Shown: positions 2,776-62,346, counted from the first letter of the stretch. The stretch: 64,000 bases of DNA from Terriglobia bacterium (GCA_963766615.1 CAVYBC010000002.1:45308-109307), one strand, 5' to 3'. Made by a program: numbers and translations. Notes: a model not told the origin generated them from the letters alone.

Positions 2776-2777
2776 AC

Positions 2778-9547: not shown

Positions 9548-9628
9548 TTGATGGGCTGAATCATTTTAAGTGATAGGCCCGGTTGAGTTTGCTGCCCGGT
9601 GAAATATAATCGTACTGGCCTCAAGCTG

Positions 9629-11989: not shown

Positions 11990-11996
11990 GGATTTC

Positions 11997-14823: not shown

Positions 14824-15986
14824 CTAGTGTGGTGCGTCACTCAGATGCGACCTTATCCAGGGTACGACGGGCGCGAGTGACTTTTTCGAGGATATCCGAG
14901 GCCTTCGCCGTCCAGATGAAGGGTTTTGGCGCTTGGTTGTAATTCTGGATGTAGTCTTCGATAGCGGAGATTAGTTCGGGAACGCTTCGGAAAACACCAC
15001 GTCGAATCCGGTTCTCTGTGATGTCGCGAAAGAAGCGCTCGATCATATTGAGCCAAGAAGCACTGGTTGGCGTGAAATGCATGTGGACGCGCTTGTTCCG
15101 CCCCAGCCACGCTTTGACCGCCGGGTGTTTATGCGGTGAGTAGTTGTCGGCGATCACGTGGATGTGCTTTTCCTTGGGAGTATTACGGATGATCAGGCGA
15201 AGGAACGCTAACCAGTCTTCGTTGGTATGGCGGGGACGGCACTGACTGAGGACCTCGCCGGTGAGGACGTTGAGAGCCGCGAATAACGTGGTGGTTCCAT
15301 GGCGTTTGTAGTCGTGCGTCATGGTGCCCTTGCGGCCTTTCTTCATCGGCAAACCGGGCTGGGTACGATCCAAAGCTTGAATCTGGCTCTTCTCGTCCAC
15401 CGAGAATACGATGGCCTGCTGCGGTGGGTTCAAGTACAGCCCGACGATGTCTTCGAGTTTTTCAACGAACTGCGGATCGCGGCTGACTTTGAAGGTATCG
15501 ACCAGATGCGGCTTGAGCCCGTGGGCATGCCAGGCGCGTCGAACAGTAGCCTCGCTGATTCCCAAAACGCGGGCCAGGGTGCGGGTGGTCCAATGGGTCG
15601 CATGCGCTGGCTTTTCCTGCGTTGTTTTCCGGATGATTTCGTCCGGATTGATGGTTCGAGTTCTTCCTGGTCGGGGCGCATCTTTCTCAATTCCGGCCAT
15701 GCCGTACTGCAAAAATCGCGCTCTCCATCGTGCAACCGTGTGGCGCCCGAGTTGAAGCGCAGAGGCGATTTCCTGGTCTCGCTTTCCTTCGGCTGCTTGC
15801 AGGATGATGTTGGCTCGCTCCACCAATCGCAAAGCAACTGACCGGCGCCGCGCGTAGGCTGACAACTCGGATCTTTGCTCCTCCGTCAAAACAACTTGGG
15901 CGGCAACTCGCATTCGGGCTCGTCTCCTATTAAGACAAACCCGATTGGTTTGTATAAGTAGCGCTATTTACGACGCACTACACTAG
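14824..15986 (-). mobile_element. IS630-family insertion sequence, intact
   Basis: Terminal inverted repeats are CTAGTGTGGTGCGTC (14824-) and the reverse complement CTAGTGTAGTGCGTC (-15986). TA occurs at both junctions, consistent with IS630 TA target duplication. There is a single transposase ORF. Confidence 0.85.
14837..15913 (-). CDS. IS630-family DDE transposase
   Basis: 358 aa with an N-terminal HTH region and a DDE region (VFSVDEKSQIQAL...IHVIADNYSPHKH...WLNMIERFFRDIT). Confidence 0.9.
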   Translation of the reverse strand: MRVAAQVVLTEEQRSELSAYARRRSVALRLVERANIILQAAEGKRDQEIASALQLGRHTVARWRARFLQYGMAGIEKDAPRPGRTRTINPDEIIRKTTQEKPAHATHWTTRTLARVLGISEATVRRAWHAHGLKPHLVDTFKVSRDPQFVEKLEDIVGLYLNPPQQAIVFSVDEKSQIQALDRTQPGLPMKKGRKGTMTHDYKRHGTTTLFAALNVLTGEVLSQCRPRHTNEDWLAFLRLIIRNTPKEKHIHVIADNYSPHKHPAVKAWLGRNKRVHMHFTPTSASWLNMIERFFRDITENRIRRGVFRSVPELISAIEDYIQNYNQAPKPFIWTAKASDILEKVTRARRTLDKVASE

Positions 15987-16422: not shown

Positions 16423-18798
16423 GTGTTTATAAATCGCCGAGTCTTAGCGATCTCGATCTTCTGTATGTCTGGCTCGGCCTTGTGGGCCGATGCTGGGCAA
16501 CCGCAACGGTATACAGAGCTCACCAAGACTTATTGTGTGAAATGCCATAACGATAAGGCTAAGATCGGGGGGCTTTCCCTGCAGTCTGCCGACGTTGAGA
16601 ATGTCCCAAAGTCGGCTGAAACGTGGGAAAAAGTGATCCGCAAGATCCGCACTGGGGCGATGCCGCCGCAGGGAGTTACGCGTCCGCCCGCTGCAGAATT
16701 AGATGGGTTCGCCGGCTATCTGGAAACCTCGCTCGATAAGGCTGCCTCGGCGAAAATGAGTCCTGGCCGGTCGCCTCTTCGGCGGCTGAATCGGGCCGAA
16801 TATTCGAACGCGATTCGCGACCTGCTGAACCTGGATATCGATGTCTCCGATACGCTTCCAGCGGACGACGAAAGCAACGGGTTTGACAACATCGCCGACG
16901 CATTGCGATTCTCGCCGTCGTTGATGGAGCATTATTTGTCGGCATCCTGGAACATCAGCCGCCTGGCGGTGGGCAACCCTCAGGTTGCGCCTTCGACCTC
17001 GACGTATCGTGTCCGGCCGGACCTATCGCAGGATCAGCATATTGAAGGGTTGCCGCTGGGGAGCCGGGGAGGCATCGCCGTCCGCCACAATTTCCCCGTG
17101 GATGGCGATTACGTTCTGAAAGCGCGGCTCTGGCGCAACACTTTTGATTTATTGCGAGGCATGGAAGATCCGCACGAGATTGAGATCGCGATGGATGGGG
17201 CGCGGTTGACGTCGGTCACCATCGGCGGTCATGAGGATTTCGTCAAGATGGCGGCAAATCCCGGCGAGTTTGGAGCGGCGCTCGATCAGAAATTGACGGT
17301 TCGCACTCCGGTGAAGGCGGGTCCTCACATGGTGACGGCTACCACGATTCTGCGCAGCCACGCCGTCCGTGACGATCTGATCAAGCCTTTTATCCGGACG
17401 ACCATTGATGGCCTGGATATTACCGGAGATCCGTCGATGGACCGGCTGACAATTGAAGGTCCCAGCAATGCGAAGGGAGCCAATCAGACGCCCTCCCAAA
17501 AGCGCATTTTTGTGTGCCACCCGGAAAATCAATCGCAGGAATTGCCTTGCGCGAGGAAGATACTATCGGCTCTGTCTCAACATGCTTATCGCCGTCCCGT
17601 GAAGGATGCCGACATGGAACAGTTGCTGACATTCTTCCAGCGGGGCCGCAACAACAAGGGGACCTTCGAAGCGGGTATCGAGTCGGCGTTGCAGTTGATT
17701 CTGGCCAACCCGGAATTCCTGTTCCGCTTTGAGGACGAGCCTGCGGGCGCGCCGGGGGTGGTTTATCGGATCGACGATATTGCGCTGGCGTCGCGATTAT
17801 CGTTCTTTCTGTGGAGCTCGGTTCCGGACGATCAGCTTATGGCGCTAGCGGTGAAGGACAAGCTGAAAGATCCCGCCGTGCTGGACGCGCAGGTTCGCCG
17901 GATGCTGGCCGATCCTAAGGCTAATGCGCTGGTGGATAACTTCGCGGAGCAGTGGTTGTTTCTGAGGAATCTGAAAAACTCGGCTCCGAACATGACGGAG
18001 TTTCCGGACTTCGACGATAATCTGCGGCAGGCCATGAAGGAAGAAACCAAGCTTTTCTTCCTCAGCATCATGCATGAGGATCGCAGCATTATCGACCTGC
18101 TGAACGCGGATTATACGTTCATCAATGAGCGGCTGGCGCGGCATTACGGTATTCCTAACATTTATGGAAGCCAGTTCCGGCGGGTCTCGGTCACCGATCC
18201 AAGGCGGCGCGGCCTTTTAGGGCAGGCGAGCATCCTCACTGTTACTTCGTATCCGAACCGGACGTCTCCGGTGCAGCGCGGTAAGTGGATTCTCACCAAC
18301 ATTCTGGGAACTCCCCCGACGCCGCCTCCACCTGGTGTGCCCGAATTGAAGGAAAGTGGGGCAAATGCCCCTACGACTTTGCGGGAACGGATGGAAGCTC
18401 ATCGGGCCGATGCGGTCTGTGCCGGATGCCACAAGGTGATGGACCCGATTGGGTTCTCGCTCGAAAACTTTGATGCCATCGGACGGTGGCGCGCTTCGGA
18501 TGAAGGCGCAAAGATCGACCCGAGCGGAGTTCTTTATAACGGAATGAAGGTTTCGGGACCTGAGGATTTGCGGGCCATGTTAACGGCTCGGCCCGAGAAC
18601 TTTGCGGGCATCGCAGTGGAGCGGTTATTGACCTATGGAATCGGGCGCGGGCTTGACTATAGCGATATGCCGATGGTGCGGAAGATTGTCAGTCAGGCCG
18701 CTGGTCAGAACTTCCGTTTCTCGTCGCTGATTCTTGGGATTGTGGATAGCCCGGCGTTCCAGATGAAAGAGCACAAGACGCAAATTGCTTCGCGTTGA
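16423..18798 (+). CDS. DUF1592-type exported protein with two CxxCH motifs (copy 2)
   Basis: 791 aa with a GTG start, containing CVKCH and CAGCH. It is collinear with copy 1 at roughly half identity by eye. Confidence 0.8.
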   Translation: MFINRRVLAISIFCMSGSALWADAGQPQRYTELTKTYCVKCHNDKAKIGGLSLQSADVENVPKSAETWEKVIRKIRTGAMPPQGVTRPPAAELDGFAGYLETSLDKAASAKMSPGRSPLRRLNRAEYSNAIRDLLNLDIDVSDTLPADDESNGFDNIADALRFSPSLMEHYLSASWNISRLAVGNPQVAPSTSTYRVRPDLSQDQHIEGLPLGSRGGIAVRHNFPVDGDYVLKARLWRNTFDLLRGMEDPHEIEIAMDGARLTSVTIGGHEDFVKMAANPGEFGAALDQKLTVRTPVKAGPHMVTATTILRSHAVRDDLIKPFIRTTIDGLDITGDPSMDRLTIEGPSNAKGANQTPSQKRIFVCHPENQSQELPCARKILSALSQHAYRRPVKDADMEQLLTFFQRGRNNKGTFEAGIESALQLILANPEFLFRFEDEPAGAPGVVYRIDDIALASRLSFFLWSSVPDDQLMALAVKDKLKDPAVLDAQVRRMLADPKANALVDNFAEQWLFLRNLKNSAPNMTEFPDFDDNLRQAMKEETKLFFLSIMHEDRSIIDLLNADYTFINERLARHYGIPNIYGSQFRRVSVTDPRRRGLLGQASILTVTSYPNRTSPVQRGKWILTNILGTPPTPPPPGVPELKESGANAPTTLRERMEAHRADAVCAGCHKVMDPIGFSLENFDAIGRWRASDEGAKIDPSGVLYNGMKVSGPEDLRAMLTARPENFAGIAVERLLTYGIGRGLDYSDMPMVRKIVSQAAGQNFRFSSLILGIVDSPAFQMKEHKTQIASR

Positions 18799-18810
18799 TC
18801 GGAGATTAGC

Positions 18811-20160
18811 ATGACGTTTATTACTAAGAAACATCTTTCCAGACGCACGGTGCTGCGCGGCTTGGGCGTATCGCTATCACTTCCGCTTCTTGACTCGATG
18901 CTGCCCGCGCAGACGCCATTGGGGAAGACTGCCGCGAAGCCCAAAGTGCGGTTGGCGTTGTGCTACATCCCACATGGCGGGGTCATGGCGAATTGGACCC
19001 CGGCGGCCCAGGGCGACAAGTTTGAGGTGTCGCGTATTCTCATGCCGCTTGCACCCTATCGCGACAACGTGGTGGTGGTGAGCAACCTCGCTCACGCGAT
19101 GGCTGCGCCGGGTGGGCCGGGCGATAATGGCGGCGATCATACGCGCTCGCCTGCGGTCTTTCTGAATGGCGTGCATCCGAAACGCACGGACGGAGCGGAT
19201 ATTCGAGCCGGGGTCACGATCGACCAGATCGCGGCGGCGCAGCTTGGCCAGGAGACACCGATCCCGTCGATGGAGCTTGCCATCGAGGATTTCAGCGGTC
19301 TGGTGGGTTCTTGCGACGTTGGATTCAGTTGCGCCTACATGAATACGATTTCCTGGCGCACGCCGACCACGCCGCTTCCCATGGAGATCAATCCTCGCGC
19401 CGTATTTCATCGCATGTTCGGCGACGGAGCCACGGCGGAGGAACGTCAGGAGCGCATCGCGCAGCAGCGCAGCATTCTGGACGCGGTGACGGGGCAGACT
19501 CGCAAACTGGAAAACGAGCTTGGCGCAGCGGACCGGTCACGGGTCGCCGAATATCTCGACTCGGTGCGCGAGGTGGAGCGTCGAATCGAGCTTTCGGAAA
19601 AACAAACTCAGGGTACGGCCGAGGTGCCGGAGTCTCCCGTCGGCATTCCGGACGCACACGACGTGCACACCAAGCTGATGTTCGACCTGATGACCATCGC
19701 GTTTCAGACCGACCTGACTCGCATCGCGACCTTCATGATGGCGCGCGAGGTGAGTTACCGCACGTTCCCGATGCTGGGAATCGCCGAGGGCTTCCATCCG
19801 GCATCGCACCACCAGAACAACGCGGACCGGCTAGAGAATCTCACAAAGATCAATACCTATCACGTCAGCCTGGCGGCGCATTTCCTGGAACGGCTGAAGG
19901 CAACGCAAGACGGCGACGGCACGCTGCTGGATCATTCGCTGATTCTCTACGGGTCGGGAATGAGTAACAGCAACATCCACAATCATTCGCCGCTGCCTGT
20001 GTTTGTCGCGGGCGGCGCGGCAGGCCGGTTGAAGGGTGGCCGCCATCTGCTGTATCCCGAAAATACGCCGATGTCGAACCTGCTGCTTTCGATCCTGCAA
20101 AAATCGGGAGTTGCTATCGATAGTGTTGGTGATTCAACTGGGCCGTTGACGGAGCTTTAA
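18811..20160 (+). CDS. DUF1552-family protein with twin-arginine signal (copy 2)
   Basis: Starts MTFITKKHLSRRTVLRGLGVSLSLPLLDSM, has a GGAGA RBS, and is collinear with copy 1. Confidence 0.8.
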   Translation: MTFITKKHLSRRTVLRGLGVSLSLPLLDSMLPAQTPLGKTAAKPKVRLALCYIPHGGVMANWTPAAQGDKFEVSRILMPLAPYRDNVVVVSNLAHAMAAPGGPGDNGGDHTRSPAVFLNGVHPKRTDGADIRAGVTIDQIAAAQLGQETPIPSMELAIEDFSGLVGSCDVGFSCAYMNTISWRTPTTPLPMEINPRAVFHRMFGDGATAEERQERIAQQRSILDAVTGQTRKLENELGAADRSRVAEYLDSVREVERRIELSEKQTQGTAEVPESPVGIPDAHDVHTKLMFDLMTIAFQTDLTRIATFMMAREVSYRTFPMLGIAEGFHPASHHQNNADRLENLTKINTYHVSLAAHFLERLKATQDGDGTLLDHSLILYGSGMSNSNIHNHSPLPVFVAGGAAGRLKGGRHLLYPENTPMSNLLLSILQKSGVAIDSVGDSTGPLTEL

Positions 20161-20161
20161 A

Positions 20162-21689
20162 ATGCGAAATCGAATCTTCATTCTGCTCGCGGGCGCTTTG
20201 ACGCTGGCGGCGCAAGTTCCCAGCGGATCGGCGCAGGTTGCCGACGCGGCTCAAATTCGCGATACCGACAGCTTGCGGCGGCTATTGGCCCAGCACGCCA
20301 ACCCGAGTGTCGCGCAGCCGGATGGAACTACGGCGCTGCATTGGGCGGCGCACTGGAATGATGTCGGACTCGGTGAAACTTCTCTTGAAGGCTGGGGCGG
20401 ATGTGAAAGCGGTGAACCGGTTTGGCGCGAGTCCTCTGTCTGAGGCTGCCGGAGGCGGGAATGCAGAAATCGTCAACGCATTGCTGGCGGCGGGAGCCGA
20501 TGCGCGCACGCTGACGACCAAAGACGGCGAAACTGTCCTCATGACAGCGGCTCGCGGCGGCTATCTGGACGTGGTTAAAGCGCTGGCTGCGCATGGCGCC
20601 GATGTCAACGCGCAGGAGCATTACAAATCGCAGACCGCTTTAATGTGGGCCGCGGCCGATGGCCATGCCGACGTGGTCAAGTTCCTGCTGGATCACGGCG
20701 CGGACTGGAAGGTGCAATCCTCCTCGCGCGAAAGCAAAATACCCAAGCTGAGCGCTGCTTCGTCGGTCACGCCGATGTCGCGCGGCGGCCTTACGGCTCT
20801 GCATTTTTCGGCTCGTGAAGGCGACGTCAAGTCGGCCGGATATATGTTGGATGCGGGAGCGGACATCAATATCGGAGATGGGGATGGAACCAGTCCTTTG
20901 ACGGTTGCGATTCTGAACAAGCACTACACGTTCGCGAAGTTTATGCTGGATCGCGGCGCCAACCCGAATGTCGCTGACGTTCGCGGAGAGGAGTCGCTTT
21001 ACGCGACTCTCGATATGCGTAACGAAGATTATTCGGCGCTGCCTTTGCGTAAGGGGGATGATCCGGTATCCACTACGGAGATGCTCCGGGCGCTGCTGAA
21101 GCATGGTGCGGACCCGAACGCGGCGCTGACAAAGAACCTGCCGGGGAAAAGCGGTATGGATGCGGGCGATACGAGCCTGGACAAAGGGACGACTCCTCTG
21201 ATGCGGGCTGCCCGCGCAGGCGACGTCCCTGCAATGGAATTACTGCTGGCGGCGGGTGCCGATCCCAAGAAAATTACTGCCGAAGGAAATGACATCCTGT
21301 TGTTTGCAGCCGGCGTCGGCTATCGGGACAAGAGCACCTATGGCGATGAAGCAGCCGCGCTGGCGGCGGTGAAACTTGCGCTGAAGCTAGGCTTGGACCT
21401 GAATCGTACTAACAACAAGGGCGAGATCGCGCTGCACGGTGCGGCATTTCGGGGAGCCGATACCATCGTTGCCTTTCTGGCTGAGCAAGGGGCTTCCCCG
21501 AATGCCAAAAACAAACAGGGGATGACGATTCTGGATTACGCCATGGGCAAGGCGGTGCTGTTCCAGTTGCCAGTGCCGCATGACAGCACGGTAGAACTGG
21601 TTCGCAAGCTTGGGGGAGTGGAAGGGAAAGCCCCGAGCGCCCCGGTCACCGCTGTCAGCAATAAGGGCGTCGTCAGAGACGATCATTAA
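20162..21689 (+). pseudogene. exported ankyrin-repeat protein (copy 2), reading frame broken near 20366
   Basis: ORF 20162-20443 carries the signal peptide and first ANK repeat. It continues in ORF 20238-21689 at ...ALHWAAHWNDV | DSVKLLLKAGADV. GTCGGAC is found where GTCGAC would keep the frame. Confidence 0.75.
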
Positions 21690-21767: not shown

Positions 21768-22670
21768 TTGCGGGTATTCTGTTGCCCTAGAACAGAAATG
21801 AACGCCCACGTATTGCGCGCTCGCGCTCTGCCTAAAGTTGAGCGTGAGCAAGTCTTTTGGAAATCGGCGAAAGTTGGCTGGCTCGGGCCCGCTCATCAGC
21901 CCATGACTCTGATTACGTTCGTCAACGGGAAGAAAGGCCACGGCTTCGCCCGTTTCGCTCCGAATGGCTCGACTGAGGAACAACTACGGGCTCTTCGAGC
22001 ATATATTGAAACCATGGGATGTCCGAAGCGGATCGCGACAGCGGAAGGGTTGGGTACCATGAGTCAACTGCCGCGGGCGTTGAAGGAACTGGGAGTTTTG
22101 TGGGCTTCGCAGAACCAACCGCCGGCGGACGGAGTTTCAGCGCGACTTTTCCGTGATATTCAAGTGCGGATTGTGCCGTCGTTCCAGGAAGCCGGAATAT
22201 CGACGATCGAAAAGGCCAATCGCTTTTTGGACCAAGTCTATTTGCCTCGATGGAATTCCCGCAGAGAGCCGGCCAACTTCGAAGCCAACCAGCCAGCGCC
22301 GTCGAATGAAGATTTGGACTCAATCCTGAGCGTGGTGACTCTCCGCGTATTGAATAGCAGAAACGTACTTCGCTACAAGAATCGAACTTATGGAATGCCT
22401 CCGGGCGCGGTTCCTCGGGGACCGGGGGGATCGGTCATCCGAATTGAAGCGCGTTTGGACGGAGGCGTGCGATTCCGGCTGGCGGATCAAAATGTTCCCA
22501 TCGAATTAATAGAACGGGACGCTGCTCATCAGGCGGCTGCTCATCAGGCATTGGGGGAAGGCAAGAAAGCCAAGAAGCCGCGGAAAATCGGCGGATACAA
22601 CCGGTCGTGGATGAAAGGTTTCCTGGACCGTCCGGCGCCGCAATTGTGGAAATCTTTCGGCTCCGTTTAA
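21768..22670 (+). pseudogene. decayed, N-terminally truncated transposase relic (ISNCY-like rve-type integrase family)
   Basis: It keeps family-like blocks (ALKELGVLWASQ..., AGISTIEKANRFLDQVYLPRWNSR, and a C-terminal RLDGG segment). It lacks the N-terminal HTH and the SPQAKGR-type catalytic block, and I found no terminal repeats. Confidence 0.45.
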
Positions 22671-22774: not shown

Positions 22775-23581
22775 TTGTTGAAACATTTTATAACCCCTTG
22801 TAGCGGATTAATTCTCATGGCGGCGGCAGTGTTGCCTATACAGACTTGGGCGCAGGAAGCGCCTGCAGCTCCAAAACCGGCTGCAGCAGCGGAAGGAGCG
22901 GCCCCCGCGCGAGCTCCTCGTGGTCCTCAGCCTCCCACTGGTCCTGCACCTCGCACTGCCGACGGGAAGGTGGATTTCAGCGGCAATTGGGCGCCGAATG
23001 CGATCCGGCAGAATATTAATCTGGCCTCGGTGGGCGGCGAACCGGAAATGGCGCCCTGGGCCCTGAAGGTCTATCAGGAACACAAAACCAACATTTCCAA
23101 AGACGATCCGGAAGCGCGCTGCCTTCCTCCCGGAGTGCCGCGTATGAGCACCACTCCGTACCCGTGGACGATGATTCAGACTCCGAAAATGGTCGTGATC
23201 GTCTACGAGGGCGGAGCGCATATCTGGCGGAAGATCTTTTTGGATGGCAGGCCCCACGATCCGAACGCAGTGGAAACGTGGCTGGGCGATTCCACGGGCC
23301 ATTGGGAAGACAATGACACCTTGGTGGTTGAAACAGTTGGTCAAAATGCGATCACTTGGTTGGACGAAGATGGACATCCTCACACGAACAACATGGTGGT
23401 GACAGAAAAATTCCGCCGTCCTGATATGGGCCATCTGGAAATCGAACACGAGATTAAGGATCCGGAGGCTTATCCCAAGGGTTGGAAATTCACCACTCAT
23501 CCCACCATGCTGAATGGCGAATTGATCGAGTACATCTGCCAGGAAAACAACCGCGACGTCCAGCATCTGCAAGGCAAGTAG
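22775..23581 (+). CDS. exported protein of an uncharacterised family (paralog 1 of 4 in this window)
   Basis: TTG start 8 nt after AGGAG, a signal peptide and a Pro/Ala-rich linker. Conserved blocks are DFSGNW, ARCLPPGVP, WLGDSTGHWEDNTLVVET and EYICQEN. Confidence 0.7.
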   Translation: MLKHFITPCSGLILMAAAVLPIQTWAQEAPAAPKPAAAAEGAAPARAPRGPQPPTGPAPRTADGKVDFSGNWAPNAIRQNINLASVGGEPEMAPWALKVYQEHKTNISKDDPEARCLPPGVPRMSTTPYPWTMIQTPKMVVIVYEGGAHIWRKIFLDGRPHDPNAVETWLGDSTGHWEDNDTLVVETVGQNAITWLDEDGHPHTNNMVVTEKFRRPDMGHLEIEHEIKDPEAYPKGWKFTTHPTMLNGELIEYICQENNRDVQHLQGK

Positions 23582-23585
23582 TCTC

Positions 23586-24002
23586 ATGAAAGTGAAGTTG
23601 ATGATCGCTGTGGCGGCGGGGTTACTCTGTGCGGGCATCCCGCTGGCCGCTCATCATTCGTTTGCGGCGGAGTACGACGGCACCAAACCCATCACCTTGA
23701 AAGGCAAGGTGAACAGGATGGAGTGGGTAAATCCTCATTCGTGGGTTTATGTCGACGTGACGGATGCGAGCGGCAAAGTGACCACCTGGGCCTGTGAAAC
23801 CGCGCCGCCGAATGGCCTTTACCGGCAAGGCTGGCGAAAAGACAGCTTAAAGGCTGGGGATGAAGTGACCATTGAAGGATTCCTCGCCAAGGACGGAACG
23901 CCAACCATGAATGCGCGATCGGTCACCATGGCGGATGGTCGCAGAATGTTTGCGGGCAGTTCAGGCGACGGCGGGCCCGAGGCGAAATCCAATTCCAAGT
24001 AG
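23586..24002 (+). CDS. small exported DUF6152-like protein, predicted mature N-terminus HHSF (copy 1)
   Basis: 138 aa. The signal peptide ends PLAA and is followed by HHSFAAEYD. It contains the conserved motif MEWVNPHSW. The ATG lies 5 nt after the upstream stop. Confidence 0.75.
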   Translation: MKVKLMIAVAAGLLCAGIPLAAHHSFAAEYDGTKPITLKGKVNRMEWVNPHSWVYVDVTDASGKVTTWACETAPPNGLYRQGWRKDSLKAGDEVTIEGFLAKDGTPTMNARSVTMADGRRMFAGSSGDGGPEAKSNSK

Positions 24003-24028
24003 CACAACCGGCGGTCTGGCCGGTCTCA

Positions 24029-24070
24029 CATCCCGCCCACTCCTGACGGAGTCCGGCGGGATTTCTTCTA
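24029..24070 (+). terminator. rho-independent terminator
   Basis: Hairpin ATCCCGCC-ACTCC-TGAC-GGAGT-CC-GGCGGGAT followed by TTCTTCT. Confidence 0.6.
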
Positions 24071-24071
24071 T

Positions 24072-24422
24072 ATGATGATTTCGATTAAGAATCTACGCGT
24101 CGCCACAGTGCTTGGCGTCTACGAGGAAGAACGCCACGCCGAACGCGATATTGTCATCAACGTGCGAATCGAATATGACGATCGGGCGGCGCGGCTTAGC
24201 GATTCGCTGGCGGATGCGCTGGACTATAAGGAGATTCGCGACAAGATCGTGAAGATTGTCGGCGCGGCGAAGTTCCGGTTGCTGGAGACGCTTGCGGATC
24301 GGATCGTCCAGGAACTGATTTGCGACGCGCGGATTCTCAAGCTGGAGTTGGAGATCGACAAGCCGCGTGCGATGCGGCTGACGGACTCGGTTTCGGCTAT
24401 TGTGCACTGGCAGCGGGAGTGA
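24072..24422 (+). CDS. folB: dihydroneopterin aldolase family protein
   Basis: 116 aa. IKNLRVATVLGVYEEERHAERDIVINV...LDYKEI matches the FolB tunnelling-fold pattern. Confidence 0.7.
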   Translation: MMISIKNLRVATVLGVYEEERHAERDIVINVRIEYDDRAARLSDSLADALDYKEIRDKIVKIVGAAKFRLLETLADRIVQELICDARILKLELEIDKPRAMRLTDSVSAIVHWQRE

Positions 24423-24460
24423 GCCGGGAGTGAAATACTGTATAGGGTAAAGGAGCATCC

Positions 24461-26071
24461 ATGTCACTAACGCGGACCGGGCTACGTACGCAGACGTTTC
24501 TGAATTTCGCGTTCTAATAACTGCCGGAGCCGCTGGCGCGCACGCGCAGGCCTTCGCCGATGTCAAGGGAGCGCTGGTCGATTACACCCAGGCGGACCTG
24601 ATGCCTCGCAAGTCTTGCGGAGAGCTGGTCAGTTTAAGTTGAAGGAGATTGTCGCAGATCCAGGCGTCGATGCTGCCGGCTGAAGGAACCAGGCCCGCAC
24701 ACTGCAGCGTGACCGGGATGCTTTCGCCTGAAATCGCATTCGAGGTGAACTTGCCCACGGCTTGGAACGGTCGCTTTTACATGATCGGCAACGGTGGCCA
24801 CGCGGGCGAGGCACTTGACGATGCTGGACGAGTGGCGCAGCGCAATGAGGCGGTGAGGTTGGGCTTCGCGTTCGCGCAGACCAATACCGGCCATGACTCG
24901 AAGAAGGAACCGGGCGCGACGTTCGTGCTTAGCAACCCGCAGAAGGCGATCGACTACGCTTATCGGGCGGTCCACCTAACGGCTACCACGGCTAAGGAAC
25001 TCACCAAGGATTATTACGGGAAGGCGGTTTCCAAAGCCTATTGGAACTCCTGCTCCAATGGCGGACGGCAGGGATTGATCGAGGCTCAGCGCTTTGCCGA
25101 GGACTTCGACGGGATCGTCGCCAATGCGCCCTGGGTTGACCAGACCGGTTTTACGATCGCCTCGTTGTGGAATCAGAAAGCGTTATCCGAAGCTCCGGTC
25201 ACGCCGGCCAAACTCGCGCTGGTGGGGGAGAAGGTGATGGCTAAGTGCGACGCGGTTGACGGTTTGAAAGACGGCTTGATCGATGACCCGCGAAAATGTG
25301 ATTTCGACCCCAGACGCGACGTGACCAAATGCGCCGAAGGAACCGATGGGGCCGATTGTTTAACCCCCAAGCAAGCCGAGGCGATCGAGAAGGTCTATAG
25401 CGGTCCTATGAGCAACGGCAAGCCATTCTTCCCTGGCTACATGGTGGGAAGCGAAGGCGTAGTGCCGGGACGCGGCGGCGCGGCGGCGAGCGGATGGCTG
25501 AACTTGATCGTCGCTGTAACGGCGGACGGCAAGCCTGCAGACTTCAACCTAGCCGAGAACACGATGAAATATCTGGTGCCGACGCCGCCCAAGCCGGACT
25601 ACGATTACAAGACCTTCGATTTCGATCGCGATACTCATCTGCTGGACGCGTGGAGCAAGCAGGTGGATGCGAAGAACCCGGACCTTTCGAAATTCAGGAA
25701 GCATGGCGGCAAGCTCATCATGACTTACGGATGGGCGGACTCGATTCTGGAGCCGATGATGGGCGTCAATTACTACGAAGCAAGCCATGGCGAAAAACGG
25801 AACTGACGTCACGCCTCAGTTCTTCCGGCTTTTCATGGTGCCGGGTATGGCGCATTGCGGCGGCGGAATCGGGCCGGATCGTAATGACGCCGTTTCGGCG
25901 GTGATCGACTGGGTGGAGAAGGGAAAGGCTCCGGAGTCGATTACGGCCAGCCGAGTGGTGGGCGGGAAGGTCGTGCGGACGCGGCCGCTATGCCCGTATC
26001 CGCAGGTGGCTCGCTATAACGGGCAGGGCAGTATTGACGACGCGGGTAATTTCCGTTGCGTCGCGCCATAA
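24461..26071 (+). pseudogene. tannase/feruloyl-esterase-family hydrolase with three lesions
   Basis: A strong RBS (AAGGAG) precedes the ATG at 24461 and a signal peptide. A frameshift lies at about 24510, an in-frame TGA at 24640-24642, and a frameshift at about 25785. The family motifs HCSVTG...LPTAWNGRFYMIGNGG and RLFMVPGMAHCGGG are present. Confidence 0.75.
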
Positions 26072-26118
26072 CTCCGAATTCGAATTTAGAAGTAGAATTT
26101 GAATATGGAGTCGGCCGA

Positions 26119-26880
26119 ATGAGGCATCGACTTAGTTACTCAATCCTCTTTACGCTGATCGCCGGCGTGGCTATCGCACAGGACTCAGCACAGCTCTCCA
26201 CAAAGAGGGAAGTGATGCTCGGCGACCAAATGGCGGCGACGATCCGTACCCAGCAGCCAATGGTCACAGACCCGGAAGTGACCGCGTTTGTCGATCGGGT
26301 TCTCGGGGCGCTTTCCCGTAATGAGCGACTGAGGCTGCCGATCAATATCAGTCTGATCGACAACTCAGATTTGATCGCATCGGCACTCCCTGGTGGACAT
26401 TTGGTGCTCAGCTCGGGAGCGATTCTACGAGCGGACTCCGAGGCCGAAGTGGCGGGCTTGCTGGCGCATGCATTAGGTCATGCCCAATCCGGACAATTCT
26501 ATAATTCGGGTAAAACACCCCAATTGGGAACAATTCCCCTTGTGTTCGTTGGCGACCAGTGGGGAGTATGCAGGAGGACATCGCTCCAAACGATCCTCAT
26601 GCCCGTCGCCATGCGGGAGCAGTCGGGGCTCTTCGAGACCCAGGCCGACATGCTCGGGCTGGGATACATGACTAACGCCGGCTACGATCCACAGGCTCTG
26701 GCTGGCGTTTTCGATCACTGGACGGGGAAAATCCCGCTCAGCGACGATACCAAAACGAAAGCTTTAGAGTTGAGAAATGCTGCCGTGAACCCGATCGAAA
26801 ACTCTTCGGATTTCGATGCGATCAAGGCTCGTCTTACGCCGCCCAGAGTGGCCGCGAGACGTCCCACCTTAATCAAATAG
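26119..26880 (+). CDS. M48-like exported protein with a degenerate zinc motif (HALGH instead of HExxH)
   Basis: Signal peptide plus M48 blocks (ASALPGGHLVLSSGAIL, AEVAGLLAHALGHAQ, ETQADMLGLGYMTNAGYDP). The catalytic Glu position is Ala. Confidence 0.65.
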   Translation: MRHRLSYSILFTLIAGVAIAQDSAQLSTKREVMLGDQMAATIRTQQPMVTDPEVTAFVDRVLGALSRNERLRLPINISLIDNSDLIASALPGGHLVLSSGAILRADSEAEVAGLLAHALGHAQSGQFYNSGKTPQLGTIPLVFVGDQWGVCRRTSLQTILMPVAMREQSGLFETQADMLGLGYMTNAGYDPQALAGVFDHWTGKIPLSDDTKTKALELRNAAVNPIENSSDFDAIKARLTPPRVAARRPTLIK

Positions 26881-26882
26881 TT

Positions 26883-27737
26883 TTATTTGCCCTTGGCGTC
26901 GGCCTGGGCTTTTTGCTTAGCTACCGCAGCCTCGAAGGTCTTTTCGTATTCGGCGACGTGAGCCTTATAGCCTTCGGGGTCGATAAACGGATTCGGGTCT
27001 CCGTCCTTGCGCGCTTTCAGCTTGTCGTACTTCGCCTGCAGGCCATAGAACGAAGCATGCGAGCTGACCCACACTTCGACCGGGAACGTAAGGGCTTTTT
27101 TATATGTCTCCCTCATGTCCGCTTCGATGGTCGGATAGTCCTTGTTGTTCAGATACTGCAGGAACTGGCCGTTCAGGCTGCACTCAACAAACACGTTGTA
27201 CGTCTTGCCGTTTTCTTTCAGCTGAGTGGTCCAGGCGAGGCATCCCTTGGTGTGGCCGGGCATCACGTGGGCTGTCAGCGTGGTTCCGCCCAGGCTGACC
27301 GTGTCGCCATCGTCGATCACTCGATCGACAGGGTGAACCTTGCCGCCCGGTTGAAATTTCTTGGTGTCTTCCAGGTCCATGCGGCCGACCACTACCTGGG
27401 CTCCGGTCAATTCCTTGACCGCTGCGTCTCCTTCGACGTGGTCGGGGTGCGCGTGGCCGGCGATCAGGATTTTGATGTCGCTAAACTTGAAACCCAGATC
27501 CTCGACGCTCTTCTTGATGATCGGCACCGATGATTCGTAATTGCTGTTCATCAGGATGTTGCCCTGCGGCGTGACGATCAGGAAAGAGGCGAGCTCCTTG
27601 GTCCCCACGTAATACATGTTGTCCATGATCTTGTGGGGCGGAAACGGATCGTTCCATCCGTTCGGAACCCTGGATTGAGAAAACGCCGCGCTCGAAGACA
27701 GTGAGAGCGCGAGGAGCGACAAAGTCAGTCGGCGCAT
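26883..27737 (-). CDS. subclass B3 metallo-beta-lactamase-fold hydrolase
   Basis: Signal peptide, the HAHPDH motif, and downstream PGHTKG and SSHAS histidines in B3-like spacing. Confidence 0.8.
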   Translation of the reverse strand: MRRLTLSLLALSLSSSAAFSQSRVPNGWNDPFPPHKIMDNMYYVGTKELASFLIVTPQGNILMNSNYESSVPIIKKSVEDLGFKFSDIKILIAGHAHPDHVEGDAAVKELTGAQVVVGRMDLEDTKKFQPGGKVHPVDRVIDDGDTVSLGGTTLTAHVMPGHTKGCLAWTTQLKENGKTYNVFVECSLNGQFLQYLNNKDYPTIEADMRETYKKALTFPVEVWVSSHASFYGLQAKYDKLKARKDGDPNPFIDPEGYKAHVAEYEKTFEAAVAKQKAQADAKGK

Positions 27738-27743
27738 GCTTGC

Positions 27744-28175
27744 TTACTCTTTTGGCGGTTCTTTGCTGCCGACGTCTTTGGCGCCGGTATAGCTGCTGCC
27801 GGTGTCGAGCTTGCGGCCGTCGGGGAATTCGATGCTACGCGAATTGGCCCGCAGCGCGCCGTCCTTGGAGGGGAATCCATTGACGATAATCTTGGTGCCT
27901 GCGGGAAGCGAATTCCTATTCCAGCCAGCCCTTAACAGGACTCCCGGCGCTCCGCCCTCTACCATCCAATGGTCCACTGTGCCGTCTGGTTTCGTGACGT
28001 CCAGATAGAGCCAGGTGTGAGGGTTGGTCCATTCCATCTTCACCACCTTGCCCTCCAGCTTGATCGGCTTGGTGGAATCGAACTCCGCGGAAAAGGAATG
28101 ATGGGCCAACGCGGGAGAGACCGCGGCCACCAGCAGGCCTGTGGTCGCCAGAATCGTCACCAGTTTATTGTTCAT
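27744..28175 (-). CDS. small exported DUF6152-like protein, predicted mature N-terminus HHSF (copy 2)
   Basis: 143 aa. The signal peptide ends PALA and is followed by HHSFSAEFD. It contains MEWTNPHTW and is collinear with copy 1. Confidence 0.75.
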   Translation of the reverse strand: MNNKLVTILATTGLLVAAVSPALAHHSFSAEFDSTKPIKLEGKVVKMEWTNPHTWLYLDVTKPDGTVDHWMVEGGAPGVLLRAGWNRNSLPAGTKIIVNGFPSKDGALRANSRSIEFPDGRKLDTGSSYTGAKDVGSKEPPKE

Positions 28176-28190
28176 AATCCTACTCCTAGT

Positions 28191-29000
28191 TTACTTTGTA
28201 GAGGGCTTAGGCAGCTCCATGTGCATCAAATCGTGATATAGCAGTTTATCGGCGAACGGCACGCACTTATGTTCCAGTACCTCGGCATCTTTATCGACCA
28301 AACGATATAGAGGCATTTCGATGGTCCACGGCTTTGAAAATGTCATGGGATCTTCCATCGTCGCTTCGTACTGAATGTGAGTGGAATCGATGAGCTTGAA
28401 ACGCTCGGTGACCTTCATGGCTGCGCTGTGAAAATTGCCTGCGCGATCCAGCCACGTTTTTTCGTTCTGGCCAATAGTCGTTACGACCAGGGTGTTGCCT
28501 TCCCAGGCTCCCATGGACTTACCCATCCAGGTGTCCACCGGTGGCTCGGAATGATCCTTCATGAAGATGATTCTGTTGGTGGCCGCGAACGGGTAGACCA
28601 TCAGGGGGTCGCCGTCGCCCTGGAAAATCTGAAAGGGCATGTTGTGGTAGGTGACACGGGGAACGCCCAGCATGTAGCACTTGGCTTCAGGGTCGGTGTG
28701 CGGCCAGCTGGCGCGGTTTTTGTTTCGCTCTTCCAGGGCTGCCGGCAGATAGGGGATGGTCCCGCCACCTTTCAGGACGCTTTTGCCAGCGGGGATCGCG
28801 GCGATCGCGCCCTCCGGCCAGAATTCGTCGAGGGCTTGGGCGCTGTGCGCTTCCAGGTTCCAGTAGGCCGTGTTGATCGCCTGCCAGATGCCATTCATGT
28901 TCGGGTGGCCGGCGATTGTTGCCGGGCGGTTGGCTTCCTGCGCTGCGGCGGGCAGAATCAGCGCTATCGAAATGAGCGCGCCGATGAATCGATTTTGCAT
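28191..29000 (-). CDS. exported protein of the uncharacterised family (paralog 2)
   Basis: 269 aa with blocks NMNGIW, AKCYMLGVP, WMGKSMGAWEGNTLVVTT and EHKCVPF. It lies directly upstream of DUF6152-like copy 2. Confidence 0.7.
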   Translation of the reverse strand: MQNRFIGALISIALILPAAAQEANRPATIAGHPNMNGIWQAINTAYWNLEAHSAQALDEFWPEGAIAAIPAGKSVLKGGGTIPYLPAALEERNKNRASWPHTDPEAKCYMLGVPRVTYHNMPFQIFQGDGDPLMVYPFAATNRIIFMKDHSEPPVDTWMGKSMGAWEGNTLVVTTIGQNEKTWLDRAGNFHSAAMKVTERFKLIDSTHIQYEATMEDPMTFSKPWTIEMPLYRLVDKDAEVLEHKCVPFADKLLYHDLMHMELPKPSTK

Positions 29001-29244
29001 CTGTCTATTCTCAATCTACCAATACTAAAAAATGCGGGTCGCAAAACACCTCGTCAAGCATAACATGGGCGTTTCTGGATCGATACTCGTTACATCCCAT
29101 TGAGTCTTCAACCAAAGTGATACCGGTTGACAGTCTGAATGATATTCGAGATGGAACAGTTTGCCAGCAAGTCCTGGGGAAGGTAATATAGTCTCCGGAT
29201 GGAGATCGCTCCCGGCGATATCCTCTAAAAGAGGAGTTTAAGCA

Positions 29245-30288
29245 ATGATCAGACAGATTCTGGCAATCGGCGGAATGAGCATGGCGATCACCCTGGCGCA
29301 AACGCCGGCTCCAAAAGCTGCGACGTCTGCCAAGGCTGCTACGGCTACTGGGAAATATACGCCGCCGAAGACGCCCTGGGGCGAGCCTGATCTACAAGGA
29401 ATCTGGCCGATCAATCATCTGATCAACGTCGGGCTGGAGCGCAACAAAAAATACGGTGACCGTGCTACGCTCACCGAAGACGAGGCTGCGGCAGCTGAGA
29501 AGGCCCTGCATGCGCGCGATGAGCGCTATCAGACCGGAGCCATTCCGCAGGCCGACGCCGGTGGAAAGGTGACCAAGCAGACGTCGCTAATCGTCGATCC
29601 GCCTAACGGCCGGTTTCCTGAGCTCACTCCATTGGGAAAGAAGCTGCAGGCCGAGATGAAGAGCAGCTATAAGCCGGGCCAGACGGTATTCGACAGCGTG
29701 GAGGATTTCGCGGCCTGGGATCATTGCGTTACGCGCGGCATGCCGGTTTCGATGGAGCCGCGCAATTACAACAATGGAATCCGCATAATGCAGTCGCCCG
29801 GGTACGTGATCATTCTGCTTGAGATGGCCCACGAGGCGCGCGTCATTCCCACCAAAGCCGAACCGGCTCTCGATCCCAGCATCAAACAGTGGATGGGCGA
29901 GTCGCGCGGCCATTGGGAAGGCAATACGCTGGTAGTGGAGACCGCCAATTTCAACGGACTGGTCGGCCAAACAAGCGCGGGCGTCCCAGGATCGCCCGGC
30001 CCCTTGCAGCCGGAGACCGATAAGATGCGCACCGTGGAGCATTTCACGCGGACTGCGGCGGACACTATCGATTACAAGATGACCATTTCCGATCCGGACG
30101 TCTTGGCGACGGGTTTTTACACGATCTCGTACCCGATGTACCTCGACAACAAGTACGAGTTTTTCGAGTACGCCTGCCACGAAGGCAACACGGCGATCCG
30201 TAATTACATCGAGACGTCGCGTTTCGAACGGGAGCATCCGGATAAGGTCGGTAAGCCTGCGCCTCGCGGGGGGCGGCCGCCTCAGTAG
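29245..30288 (+). CDS. exported protein of the uncharacterised family (paralog 3, no DUF6152 partner)
   Basis: 347 aa with a GAGGAG RBS and blocks DLQGIW, DHCVTRGMP, WMGESRGHWEGNTLVVET and EYACHEGN. Confidence 0.7.
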   Translation: MIRQILAIGGMSMAITLAQTPAPKAATSAKAATATGKYTPPKTPWGEPDLQGIWPINHLINVGLERNKKYGDRATLTEDEAAAAEKALHARDERYQTGAIPQADAGGKVTKQTSLIVDPPNGRFPELTPLGKKLQAEMKSSYKPGQTVFDSVEDFAAWDHCVTRGMPVSMEPRNYNNGIRIMQSPGYVIILLEMAHEARVIPTKAEPALDPSIKQWMGESRGHWEGNTLVVETANFNGLVGQTSAGVPGSPGPLQPETDKMRTVEHFTRTAADTIDYKMTISDPDVLATGFYTISYPMYLDNKYEFFEYACHEGNTAIRNYIETSRFEREHPDKVGKPAPRGGRPPQ

Positions 30289-32876: not shown

Positions 32877-34208
32877 TCACTCATACTCCATCATCGCCAT
32901 AAACCCATAATCCATATGGATCTGCTGATGGCAATGGAATAACGTCGGCCCTGGATTATTCGCCAGCAGGTACGCCTGCAGGCGCGATTTCGGCTGCACA
33001 ACTACGACGTCCTTAAACACGCCTGACGTCTCGCGTCCCTCGACGTTTCTTAGCTCGAACGTGTGGCGATGCAGGTGAACCGGGTGGGCCTCATCGCTAC
33101 GGTTGTCAAACACCAGCCGGTAGCCATTGTTGCGCTTCACTCGAATCGGATCCGTCTTGGGAAACTGCTTGCCGTTGATCGCCCATCGGTCCGGCGTGTG
33201 TTTTCCCGCAAACTTTTTCTCGAACGTCAAAAGAATCTCCTCCGCCTTGGGCTGCGACGCCGGAGGGGCGCCGAACGCCGTATAATCCCAACGCTCATTG
33301 GACGGAGGCGTCCAGACCGGGGCGCCCGACCGGCCCGCATATTCAATCACCACGCCCATGCCCGCCTGACGATCGTGATCGTCGGTCGCACCCAGAATCC
33401 ACACACCCGGCCGATTCATCTCCACCACCGCGTCGATTCTCTCGGCGGGGCCTAGTTCCAGGGCCTCGACTTTTTTGGGGGTCGCCACTGCATTGCCATC
33501 CAGTGCGACTACCTCGAATGTATGCCCCGCCAGAGCGATCCTTCTATGGACGGTTGCGCTTGCGTTCAGGATGCGAAGCAACACGCGATCGCCCTCCTTC
33601 ACTCGGATCGGTTCGCCGTAACCAAGAGAATGGTCGTTGATCGAGAACAGTTTGTAGGCGACGTCCAACCCCTCGTCTTCCATAGTCGCCAGGTAGGGCT
33701 CCCATTCGCGCAGGGCCAGAAATTTTTCCTGGTCATACCTTGCGGGGTCGCTTGCGGGCTCGATGTAGAGAAAACCAAACTGACCTGTGTAGCTGGCTCG
33801 CTTCAGATCCTGACGTGCCTGCGTATGAGTGTGATACCAGCGCGTCCCCGAGGGTGTCGGCGTGATGTTGTAGCGCTTGTAGCTGTTTGGCGCGACCATC
33901 GGCGTCCCCTCTTCCATCGACCCGTCGACGTCAGACGCCACATGCAGCCCATGCCAATGGACCAGCTCCGGAAAAGTCGAATTGTTATAGACGTCGATGC
34001 TGACCGCCTTGCCTTCCTTCATCCGCAACAGCGGCCCTGGCGCGATGCCATTGTACCCAATCGTCTTCACGATTTTCTTGGGCGCAAGTTCCACGGAGAC
34101 AGGCCCGATCTTAAGAGTGAAGTCGGCGGGCGAGGAATTCTGCGCTCGCAGAAAAGGACCCGCCAGAGCGGTAGCTCCCAACCCGCGCAATAAATCTCTG
34201 CGCCGCAT
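32877..34208 (-). CDS. multicopper oxidase with Tat signal
   Basis: Starts MRRRDLLRGLGATALAG. Copper-site motifs are HWHGLHV, WYHTH, HPVHLHRH and HCHQQIHMDYGFM. Confidence 0.85.
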   Translation of the reverse strand: MRRRDLLRGLGATALAGPFLRAQNSSPADFTLKIGPVSVELAPKKIVKTIGYNGIAPGPLLRMKEGKAVSIDVYNNSTFPELVHWHGLHVASDVDGSMEEGTPMVAPNSYKRYNITPTPSGTRWYHTHTQARQDLKRASYTGQFGFLYIEPASDPARYDQEKFLALREWEPYLATMEDEGLDVAYKLFSINDHSLGYGEPIRVKEGDRVLLRILNASATVHRRIALAGHTFEVVALDGNAVATPKKVEALELGPAERIDAVVEMNRPGVWILGATDDHDRQAGMGVVIEYAGRSGAPVWTPPSNERWDYTAFGAPPASQPKAEEILLTFEKKFAGKHTPDRWAINGKQFPKTDPIRVKRNNGYRLVFDNRSDEAHPVHLHRHTFELRNVEGRETSGVFKDVVVVQPKSRLQAYLLANNPGPTLFHCHQQIHMDYGFMAMMEYE

Positions 34209-34233
34209 CGCTATCAATCTTAGAATATTGTCT

Positions 34234-34785
34234 ATGGACGAATCGCTCCCGTCGTTTAAGTACTTTGCCGATCCTCTCGCCGCCGGCTCTTTCAAAGTCG
34301 ATTCCGACACTCCGTGCCTGGGCTGCAACCGCATTCGCGGCTACATCTATACAGGGCCTGTCTACGTCGAAAAGAATTTCATCCTTGACGATCACCTCTG
34401 CCCCTGGTGTATCGCCGACGGGACCGCCGCCGAGCGGTTCGGAGCAAGCTTCAACGACGCGGGAATGATGGACGACCTTTCTGAAGAAGTCATTCAGGAA
34501 ATCGCGGAGCGCACTCCTGGTTTTGAGTCTTGGCAGGGCGCGGGGTGGATGGCCTGCTGCAAGGATGCGGCCGGGTTTCTGGGTCTGGCGGGTTCCAAGG
34601 AACTCAAGCGCGATTTTCCCGATGCCATTCCCGCAGTCATGGCGATTCTGGAGGATGACTACGGCTACTCCGGCAAAGAACAAAAGGAATTTTTCAACGC
34701 CCTGAGCAAAGACGACCAGCCCACGGCCTACATCTTCCAGTGCCTGCACTGTAAGAGCTACCTGGCCAACGTCGATGAGTCTTGA
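34234..34785 (+). CDS. cbrC: CbrC (UPF0167) family protein
   Basis: FKYFADP...CLGC...YTGPVY...LCPWCIADGTAAERF is the characteristic CbrC N-terminal pattern. Confidence 0.7.
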   Translation: MDESLPSFKYFADPLAAGSFKVDSDTPCLGCNRIRGYIYTGPVYVEKNFILDDHLCPWCIADGTAAERFGASFNDAGMMDDLSEEVIQEIAERTPGFESWQGAGWMACCKDAAGFLGLAGSKELKRDFPDAIPAVMAILEDDYGYSGKEQKEFFNALSKDDQPTAYIFQCLHCKSYLANVDES

Positions 34786-62100: not shown

Positions 62101-62346
62101 GTCGACTTGCTGAAGGCAGGCTCGCTCGACCTGATCGTTTACACCGGAACATCGGGCGCGCACGCATTCACGGATGAGAAAGCAATTCGCCGTCACGCGG
62201 TGACGTATCGCGTCCCCTGCATCACCACCATGAGCGGAGCCCGGGCCGCCGCCGAAGCCATCGCGTCGCGCCGAAGGGACCCGGTCCGCGTGTGGAGCTT
62301 GCAGGAAATCCACCAAACCAAAATGGCCGCGGATGAACGCCGATAG
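59115..62346 (+). pseudogene. carB: carbamoyl-phosphate synthase large subunit, reading frame broken near 60077 (probably a sequence error)
   Basis: ORF 59115-60116 ends ...[10 protein letters not shown] and then goes out of frame. The expected [19 protein letters not shown]... continues in the frame of ORF 60181-62346. One extra base lies in GCGAAAGATCGCC. Confidence 0.9.

Follow-up and report, generated by a model that had tools for sequence, protein, structure and literature searches.

The calycin superfamily was considered here through the lipocalins, the FABP/CRABP proteins and the avidins and, among bacterial proteins, through Blc, YceI/BcnA, the nitrobindin-like proteins and ZinT, which is a calycin-fold zinc protein. 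CusF/SilF and the members of the BOF family (YgiW, SipA) are periplasmic proteins with an OB-fold (oligonucleotide/oligosaccharide-binding fold) that bind metal ions or small ligands (PMC10656224, PMC6370654), and the histidine brace of copper proteins is made up of an N-terminal His together with a second His (PMC10952591, PMC7529816, PMC8424229). The present analysis concerns a stretch of 64,000 nucleotides (nt) from a Terriglobia bacterium (GCA_963766615.1, CAVYBC010000002.1:45308-109307; the whole stretch is called the window), in which genes of an exported family of ~270-350 amino acids (aa), given the working name FAM, lie next to genes of the Pfam family DUF6152. FAM and DUF6152 form a real two-protein periplasmic unit conserved across bacterial phyla, and the pair is widespread, uncharacterised and built of known fold types. 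No description of a periplasmic pair of a calycin and an OB-fold protein, or of their fusion, was found in the literature, and we know of no calycin that has an OB-fold protein as its partner or fused to it.

The gene content of the window is exactly four FAM genes (A1-A4) and two DUF6152 genes (D1 and D2), as determined by a hidden Markov model (HMM) search. These genes, read as open reading frames (ORFs), are the following:

22775-23581, plus strand: FAM A1, 268 aa, subfamily I, exported predicted barrel (ORF and AlphaFold2 model), with C116 and C255 as the Cys residues of the mature protein
23586-24002, plus strand: DUF6152 D1, 138 aa, predicted mature N-terminus HHSF (PF19649, E 3.5e-33, 114 bits against a cutoff of 27)
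27744-28175, minus strand: DUF6152 D2, 143 aa, predicted OB-fold, predicted mature N-terminus HHSF (PF19649, E 3.3e-36, 123.7 bits against a cutoff of 27)
28191-29000, minus strand: FAM A2, 269 aa, subfamily II (ORF)
29245-30288, plus strand: FAM A3, 347 aa, the long subfamily III, divergent from A2 (ORF)
52107/52125-53189, plus strand: FAM A4, subfamily I, with a C-terminal DUF3471-like extension and without a DUF6152 partner (ORF)

An initial annotation, made from the sequence alone, had reported four paralogs at these positions, and this is confirmed by the ORF listing, by pairwise identities of 33-43% (36% between A1 and A2, E 2e-28) and by an HMM built from the paralogs, which finds only these four. 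The shared motif blocks and the two invariant Cys residues that it had described are present in the alignment of A1-A4, and each mature FAM of the window contains exactly two Cys residues. Its observation that two of the FAM genes are each followed by a DUF6152 gene also stands, with PF19649 matches for both and intergenic gaps of 4 nt between A1 and D1 and 15 nt between A2 and D2. Sec-type signal peptides are present in all six proteins.

Natural fusions are the strongest evidence for a real pairing. Single ORFs containing both domains, with DUF6152 first, were found in the loci L066 and L069, and a search with the L069 fusion returned at least 120 clusters; the 120 listed are all full-length fusions of 369-406 aa with the domain order DUF6152-FAM, in which [AGS]HH immediately follows the signal peptide. 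Among the fusions listed none has the order FAM-DUF6152, though FAM followed by DUF6152 is the commoner order of the separate genes; the DUF6152-first arrangement fits a need to keep the His-His pair predicted at the start of the mature protein at a free N-terminus.

The adjacency of the separate genes is likewise conserved outside this genome. A sample of 80 metagenome loci, chosen by DUF6152 alone, contains 87 DUF6152 genes, 14 of which lie at contig ends and are outside the 73 that are testable; a same-strand FAM is directly adjacent to 72 of these 73, being directly upstream in 63 cases, directly downstream in 2 and on both sides in 7, while one gene has none. Essentially every one of the 32 DUF6152 genes in 80 genome loci that were selected by FAM has a FAM gene as its direct neighbour, in either order. 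The pair is also present on plasmids of Novosphingobium and Croceibacterium (Sphingomonadales), where identity falls to ~30-40% and all hallmark motifs are kept; the gene order is GH39-like, FAM, DUF6152, TetR in Novosphingobium humi, and DUF6152, DUF6152, FAM, TonB-dependent receptor, MarR in Croceibacterium atlanticum. Two divergent DUF6644 membrane-protein genes lie upstream of the N. humi cluster (L165, 5406-6381, minus strand). The strict pairing proposed by the initial annotation thus holds from the DUF6152 side but not from the FAM side, as 128 of 207 near-full-length FAM genes have no adjacent DUF6152; FAM must therefore also be able to work alone.

The adjacency could in principle be incidental, with two families expanded in Acidobacteria that lack functional coupling and an arrangement in the window that is a by-product of transposition; this would agree with the insertion sequence (IS) relic that adjoins A1, with the absence of the left pair at the same position in a close relative and with the many FAM genes devoid of DUF6152. 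Such an explanation is extremely improbable, since FAM adjoins 72 of the 73 testable DUF6152 genes, Proteobacteria also have the conserved pair, full-length fusions make up at least 120 clusters and the intergenic gaps measure 4-15 nt; taken together, the fusion and adjacency data effectively rule it out. The two-component extracytoplasmic system with no assigned function that had been proposed for this locus is upheld by the signal peptides, the conserved adjacency and the fusions.

FAM is a very large family. For a single query, over 4,683 clusters at 90% identity were returned, every one unnamed or "hypothetical". Among 1.84 billion representatives a profile matched 19,876 proteins at E<=1e-3 and, at the stricter E<=1e-10, 11,327; ~19,900 clusters were counted at 50% identity. 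These proteins belong mainly to Acidobacteriota (Bryobacterales, Vicinamibacterales), with some in Proteobacteria and in metagenome-assembled genomes of Dormibacterota, and many paralogs are found per genome. None of the four window paralogs matched a Pfam or NCBIfam family, and sequence and profile searches of the PDB with FAM gave only chance matches, so that the family corresponds to no characterised family in these three resources; an AMPK kinase, which appeared in the PDB search with E 0.05, was discarded as one of these. The residues conserved in 207 diverse FAMs are a first-strand G-x-W (96-100%), two Cys and an Asp (100%), and an Arg and two Glu (95-98%), with Glu-Arg and Asp-Pro among the conserved positions and Arg residues in general at 91-98%; neither an invariant His nor a conserved His/Met cluster occurs across these 207 sequences.

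FAM proteins are grouped into three subfamilies, I (A1 and A4), II (A2) and III (A3). Subfamily I genes are mostly solo or in tandem arrays, whereas 28 of the 36 members of subfamily II have a DUF6152 gene directly downstream; the long form, subfamily III, is met repeatedly as the third gene of the module, in divergent or convergent orientation, and arrangements of this kind, like that of A3, are found in L107, L115, L126, L089, L094, L098 and L106. Co-directional arrays of four FAM copies without DUF6152 were observed in L015 (3558-6648) and L029 (1257-4305). Other architectures are CarboxypepD_reg-FAM, FAM-FAM and FAM-DUF3471, the last as in A4, where the DUF3471 match is weak; it is firm in the homolog P0270 (E 2e-8). 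A DUF3471-like domain also follows serine beta-lactamase-fold domains, as in L169. An N-terminal CarboxypepD_reg domain is carried by many FAMs (P0257, P0260, P0281, P0299, P0309, P0344), and the same domain heads acidobacterial TonB-receptor-like outer-membrane proteins adjoining FAM genes.

A calycin/FABP-like (lipocalin/FABP-like) beta-barrel is predicted for FAM by structural modelling. The AlphaFold2 model of A1, which was built on a shallow alignment of 56 sequences and has a predicted local distance difference test score (pLDDT) of 76, consists of one strand, two helices and then eight strands, counting strands of 3 residues or more. In Foldseek its nearest PDB structures are CRABP2, FABP1 and FABP4, with E 5e-4 and template modelling (TM) scores of 0.55-0.62 normalised to the target. 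As in FABPs, the helix pair of the predicted barrel comes after the first strand; FAM is exported, as bacterial lipocalins are. In calycins a first-strand G-x-W packs against a basic residue of a late strand; FAM has an invariant G-x-W in its predicted first strand and conserved Arg residues, which would be candidates for such packing. In contrast, no sequence-profile match of FAM to the curated families (Lipocalin, ZinT, YceI, THAP4_heme-bd and others) was obtained at E<=0.1, and FAM is larger, with a mature core of ~210 aa, and has an invariant Cys pair, which probably forms a disulfide. With respect to ZinT, which is recognised by a conserved His triad, FAM lacks both the profile match and any invariant His. 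On profile comparisons, therefore, FAM is not placed in any curated calycin family, as every such test failed.

The predicted barrel also bears on a different role, in which FAM, in the periplasm or after secretion, would scavenge hydrophobic toxic compounds, antibiotics for example, alongside beta-lactamases and MacB-type efflux, and DUF6152 would be only a structural adaptor. The capture of antibiotics by secreted bacterial lipocalins is known (PMC5350466), and among the neighbours of FAM are a subclass B3 metallo-beta-lactamase (MBL), class-C-type beta-lactamase-fold proteins and MacB/FtsX permeases. These MBL and efflux neighbours are, however, a minority of the contexts, FAM is not related in sequence to the lipocalins YceI or Blc, and a structural adaptor would leave unexplained why DUF6152 conserves its His-His, Asp, His and Glu absolutely; scavenging is accordingly given only a slim chance.

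D1 and D2, which share 47% identity, are clear members of DUF6152 (PF19649) and display the HHS motif of the family at the predicted mature N-terminus, both containing AHHSF. In 113 DUF6152 sequences an A-H-H, an Asp eight residues on, an N-P-H, a Trp and a Glu are conserved at 96-100%, A-H-H itself at 98-100%; the predicted signal-peptidase cleavage site falls between the Ala and the His-His in 113 of 113, and N-P-H is invariant. As A-H-H stands at this site, mature DUF6152 is predicted to begin with His-His. The AlphaFold2 model of D2 (pLDDT 76), based on a shallow alignment of 43 sequences, is an OB-fold. A literature search for DUF6152 or PF19649 found nothing, and for this family the OB-fold, the near-obligate partnership with FAM and the fusions to it appear to be undescribed. 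A small periplasmic protein of the lanthanide/pyrroloquinoline quinone (PQQ) literature was set aside as not relevant, being a different protein with no conserved domain.

Like CusF/SilF and the BOF family, DUF6152 is small and Sec-exported and has a single predicted OB-fold. It differs from CusF/SilF in lacking a conserved Met pair, a CusF-type Met/His/Trp site for Cu(I)/Ag(I) and a Pfam CusF match, and from the BOF family in lacking a Pfam match to it, while neither of these groups has a calycin partner. Some features of DUF6152 recall the histidine-brace copper proteins (LPMOs, CopC, YcnI and PmoD-type): it has an invariant His at the predicted cleavage site, a further invariant His in N-P-H and acidic residues, and it stays N-terminal in the fusions, which would keep its amino terminus free; on the other hand, it has no Pfam match to the LPMO, CopC or YcnI families.

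These features lead to a proposal, put forward tentatively, in which FAM and DUF6152 are the halves of a self-contained periplasmic unit consisting of a ligand-binding barrel and a metal-binding OB-fold accessory. FAM would be a Sec-exported, probably disulfide-stapled calycin barrel that, by analogy with other calycins, may hold a small ligand. In DUF6152, cleavage of the signal peptide is predicted to expose the invariant His-His N-terminus, and this N-terminus, the Asp, the Asn-Pro-His and the Glu, all invariant, most likely make up a metal site similar to a histidine brace. The two proteins would act as a complex, and a large subfamily has them joined in one DUF6152-FAM chain. The unit lies beside variable exported enzymes and outer-membrane uptake and efflux genes, which suggests an accessory role; it would serve the neighbouring enzymes or transporters by binding or passing on a metal cofactor or small molecules.

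A more specific version, in which DUF6152 is a new OB-fold metalloprotein of histidine-brace type that acts on, or moves metal through, a ligand in the calycin barrel, so that the pair would be a class of oxidising enzymes or a metal delivery system, is unlikely. The pair could also itself be an enzyme, with a small organic substrate bound in the barrel, the chemistry, for example an oxidation, carried out by a metal centre of DUF6152 or by the Cys, Arg, Glu and Asp of FAM, and different substrates for the different paralogs. Oxygenases and peroxygenases are known among histidine-brace proteins (PMC10952591), FAM has invariant polar residues, the very large size of the family with many paralogs per genome is as expected for substrate-diversified enzymes, the unit is autonomous in that fusions stand alone, and the context is catabolic (esterases, amidohydrolases, dehydrogenases). 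Against this, no similarity to known enzymes emerged from the Pfam, NCBIfam and PDB searches, the nearest structural matches of FAM are non-enzymatic carriers, FAM often occurs without DUF6152 and nothing points to a substrate; an enzymatic function of this kind is decidedly unlikely.

The other features around the window pairs and beside A4 are the following:

21768-22670, plus strand: ISNCY-family transposase relic, N-terminally truncated, beside the left pair (NF033594, 92.9 bits against a cutoff of 250, profile positions 137-362 of 368)
24072-24422, plus strand: folB, dihydroneopterin aldolase (PF02152, E 5e-26)
24505-26071, plus strand: tannase/feruloyl-esterase-like gene, disrupted (PF07519, E 6.5e-86)
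26119-26880, plus strand: M48-like protein with HALGH instead of HExxH, predicted inactive (PF01435, E 1.3e-9)
26883-27737, minus strand: subclass B3 MBL, 6 nt 3' of D2 (NF033105, 264.5 bits against a cutoff of 240)
49371-52094, plus strand: MacB_PCD/FtsX permease, duplicated, directly 5' of A4

The initial annotation had correctly recognised the transposase relic upstream and folB and the B3 MBL between the pairs. The MBL passes the cutoff of the NCBI B3 equivalog model, and its zinc motif HxHxDH is present as HAHPDH at residues 95-100. The order FAM-II, DUF6152, MBL is found in at least seven other metagenomic loci (L081, L082, L083, L086, L092, L104 and L107), and in L107 a divergent long FAM is also present, which gives exactly the arrangement of A3 and A2, D2, MBL seen in the window. 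This recurrence indicates that the MBL is a conserved operon partner and not cargo of an island. To our knowledge, a B3 MBL has not been described before as the third gene of an operon for a calycin-like and an OB-fold protein.

The inverted layout of the two pairs was compared with a relative (L164; 88-91% nucleotide identity, identical D2 protein), in which the order EamA, A3, A2, D2, MBL, M48-like, intact tannase, folB is as in the window, while a TonB-receptor-like outer-membrane gene stands at the place of D1-A1; homology with the relative ends at window position 24028, between D1 and folB. As the left pair is lacking there, the inverted layout is a juxtaposition particular to one lineage, in which the neighbouring IS relic plausibly had a part, and the idea of an inverted pair flanking an island as a conserved unit is not sustained. 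The only DNA inverted repeat between the pairs is one of 132 nt at 70% complementarity within the DUF6152 genes, so that the two pairs are old, diverged paralogs. A composite transposon or a recent inverted duplication was rejected, there being no long near-identical inverted repeats and a flat GC content. A terminator-like hairpin at 24048-24065, after D1 and beside the synteny break at 24028-24072, is suggestive only.

The tannase-like gene had been described as triply disrupted. Two lesions, an in-frame stop at 24640-24642 and a 1-nt insertion at 25781, are found by comparison with an intact ortholog of 94-97% identity (tblastn and gap map against L161); the third is likely only, as the start region has diverged. 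Two housekeeping genes within the same 64 kb also appear split, secA into 43594-44349 and 44216-45700 (both minus strand) and carB into 59115-60116 and 60181-62346 (both plus strand), which suggests that the assembly contains indel errors. Part of the tannase damage could thus also stem from the assembly, and the pseudogene calls made here are weakened. For the M48 homolog, the replacement of HExxH by HALGH agrees with the degenerate state claimed earlier, but the relative of 88% identity has the same change (L164, 4897-5643, minus strand), so that the protein looks like a maintained, catalytically dead pseudo-protease and not like a product of recent decay.

In the wider set of loci, the commonest immediate neighbours of the module are MBL-fold genes. 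Other recurrent neighbours are TonB-receptor-like genes, PQQ dehydrogenases, tannase-type esterases, amidohydrolases, serine (class-C-type) beta-lactamase-fold proteins, MacB/FtsX permeases, glyoxalase/VOC proteins and DUF1592/DUF1552 pairs. In several loci with TonB-dependent-receptor-like genes the receptor, FAM and, in some, DUF6152 follow one another co-directionally; the PQQ dehydrogenases are heterogeneous, with a CxxCH or cytochrome c domain in some members only, and DUF1592/DUF1552 pairs occur near FAM genes in 9 loci besides the window. A single conserved operon partner was rejected in view of the heterogeneous neighbours and the lone fused genes, and, with no dominant partner and with fused genes standing alone, the unit looks self-contained.

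Part of this context would suit a dedicated periplasmic metallochaperone or metal-buffering system, in which DUF6152 would capture Zn, Cu or Ni at its N-terminal His-His and, with FAM, supply the metal to co-encoded periplasmic metalloenzymes, here the di-zinc B3 beta-lactamase; the system would possibly be placed downstream of a TonB-dependent metal or metallophore receptor. The His-His, Asp, His and Glu of DUF6152 are invariant, the operon of FAM, DUF6152 and B3 MBL is conserved, many recurrent neighbours depend on metals or cofactors (MBL, Amidohydro_3, glyoxalase/VOC, PQQ dehydrogenases, M48-like), TonB-dependent receptors are adjacent in several lineages, and periplasmic OB-fold metallochaperones, CusF/SilF, exist (PMC10656224). 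It is nevertheless rather unlikely that metal supply is the dedicated function of the pair: FAM has no conserved His or Met cluster, no Pfam match to the ZinT, CusF, CopC or YcnI families was found, no Zur, Fur or CueR-type regulators lie nearby, and the regulators in the sphingomonad loci are of the TetR and MarR types, whose usual signals are organic molecules; moreover, the link with MBL is limited to the D2 clade and the fused genes have no metalloenzyme partner.

Several points weigh against the proposed unit of ligand-binding barrel and metal-binding accessory. The fold match of FAM is moderate, and in the A1 model confidence is low around both Cys residues, with pLDDT below 50 at 111-117 and 252-268, so that the disulfide is not modelled; the N-terminal His region is of low confidence in the D2 model; and known histidine-brace proteins are beta-sandwiches (immunoglobulin-like or cupredoxin-like), whereas an OB-fold is predicted for DUF6152. 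The large share of FAM genes with no adjacent DUF6152, given above, counts in the same direction, as do the fused genes that stand alone in unrelated contexts. The neighbours are heterogeneous, the largest cluster comprising 13 of 317 immediate neighbours, and these counts are inflated by orthologous loci and are not corrected for phylogenetic redundancy or family copy number. Many neighbour families are greatly expanded in Acidobacteria. No metal-responsive regulator or riboswitch was found near the pair, and no biochemical data for FAM or DUF6152 were found in the literature.

In the rest of the window, two tandem copies of a three-gene set are located at 9599-14790 and 16423-21689, each consisting of a DUF1592/PSD-PSCyt cytochrome-domain protein, a DUF1552 (HXXSHH) protein and an ankyrin-repeat protein, and a DDE_3 transposase gene (14837-15913, minus strand) parts them. 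A three-domain multicopper oxidase (32877-34334, minus strand) lies ~2.6 kb from A3, with no conserved linkage seen, and might matter if DUF6152 binds copper. A TonB-dependent receptor with a weak STN-domain match (319-2775, plus strand) is followed by a PKHD-type 2-oxoglutarate-Fe(II) hydroxylase (2367-3455, plus strand), an arrangement typical of siderophore-uptake loci. Rfam riboswitches or other RNAs were absent from the window, and only tRNA and a group II intron fragment were found in 13 related loci; promoter and terminator scans of the region gave counts at chance level.

FAM is one of the larger protein families without a Pfam or NCBIfam model and is found mostly in soil Acidobacteriota; with the pair defined, tens of thousands of exported proteins of dominant soil bacteria now listed as "hypothetical" would gain a function, and the sphingomonad plasmid copies offer genetically tractable hosts. 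If DUF6152 does carry a metal centre on an OB-fold, more scaffolds would be known to use an N-terminal His site, and, if its brace-like reading is true, the pair would represent unrecognised and very widespread periplasmic enzymes that oxidise small molecules in soil bacteria, or a metal delivery route for metalloenzymes such as B3 beta-lactamases. If the operon of FAM, DUF6152 and B3 MBL serves to deliver metal or to handle substrates, it would be relevant to the maturation of environmental metallo-beta-lactamases.

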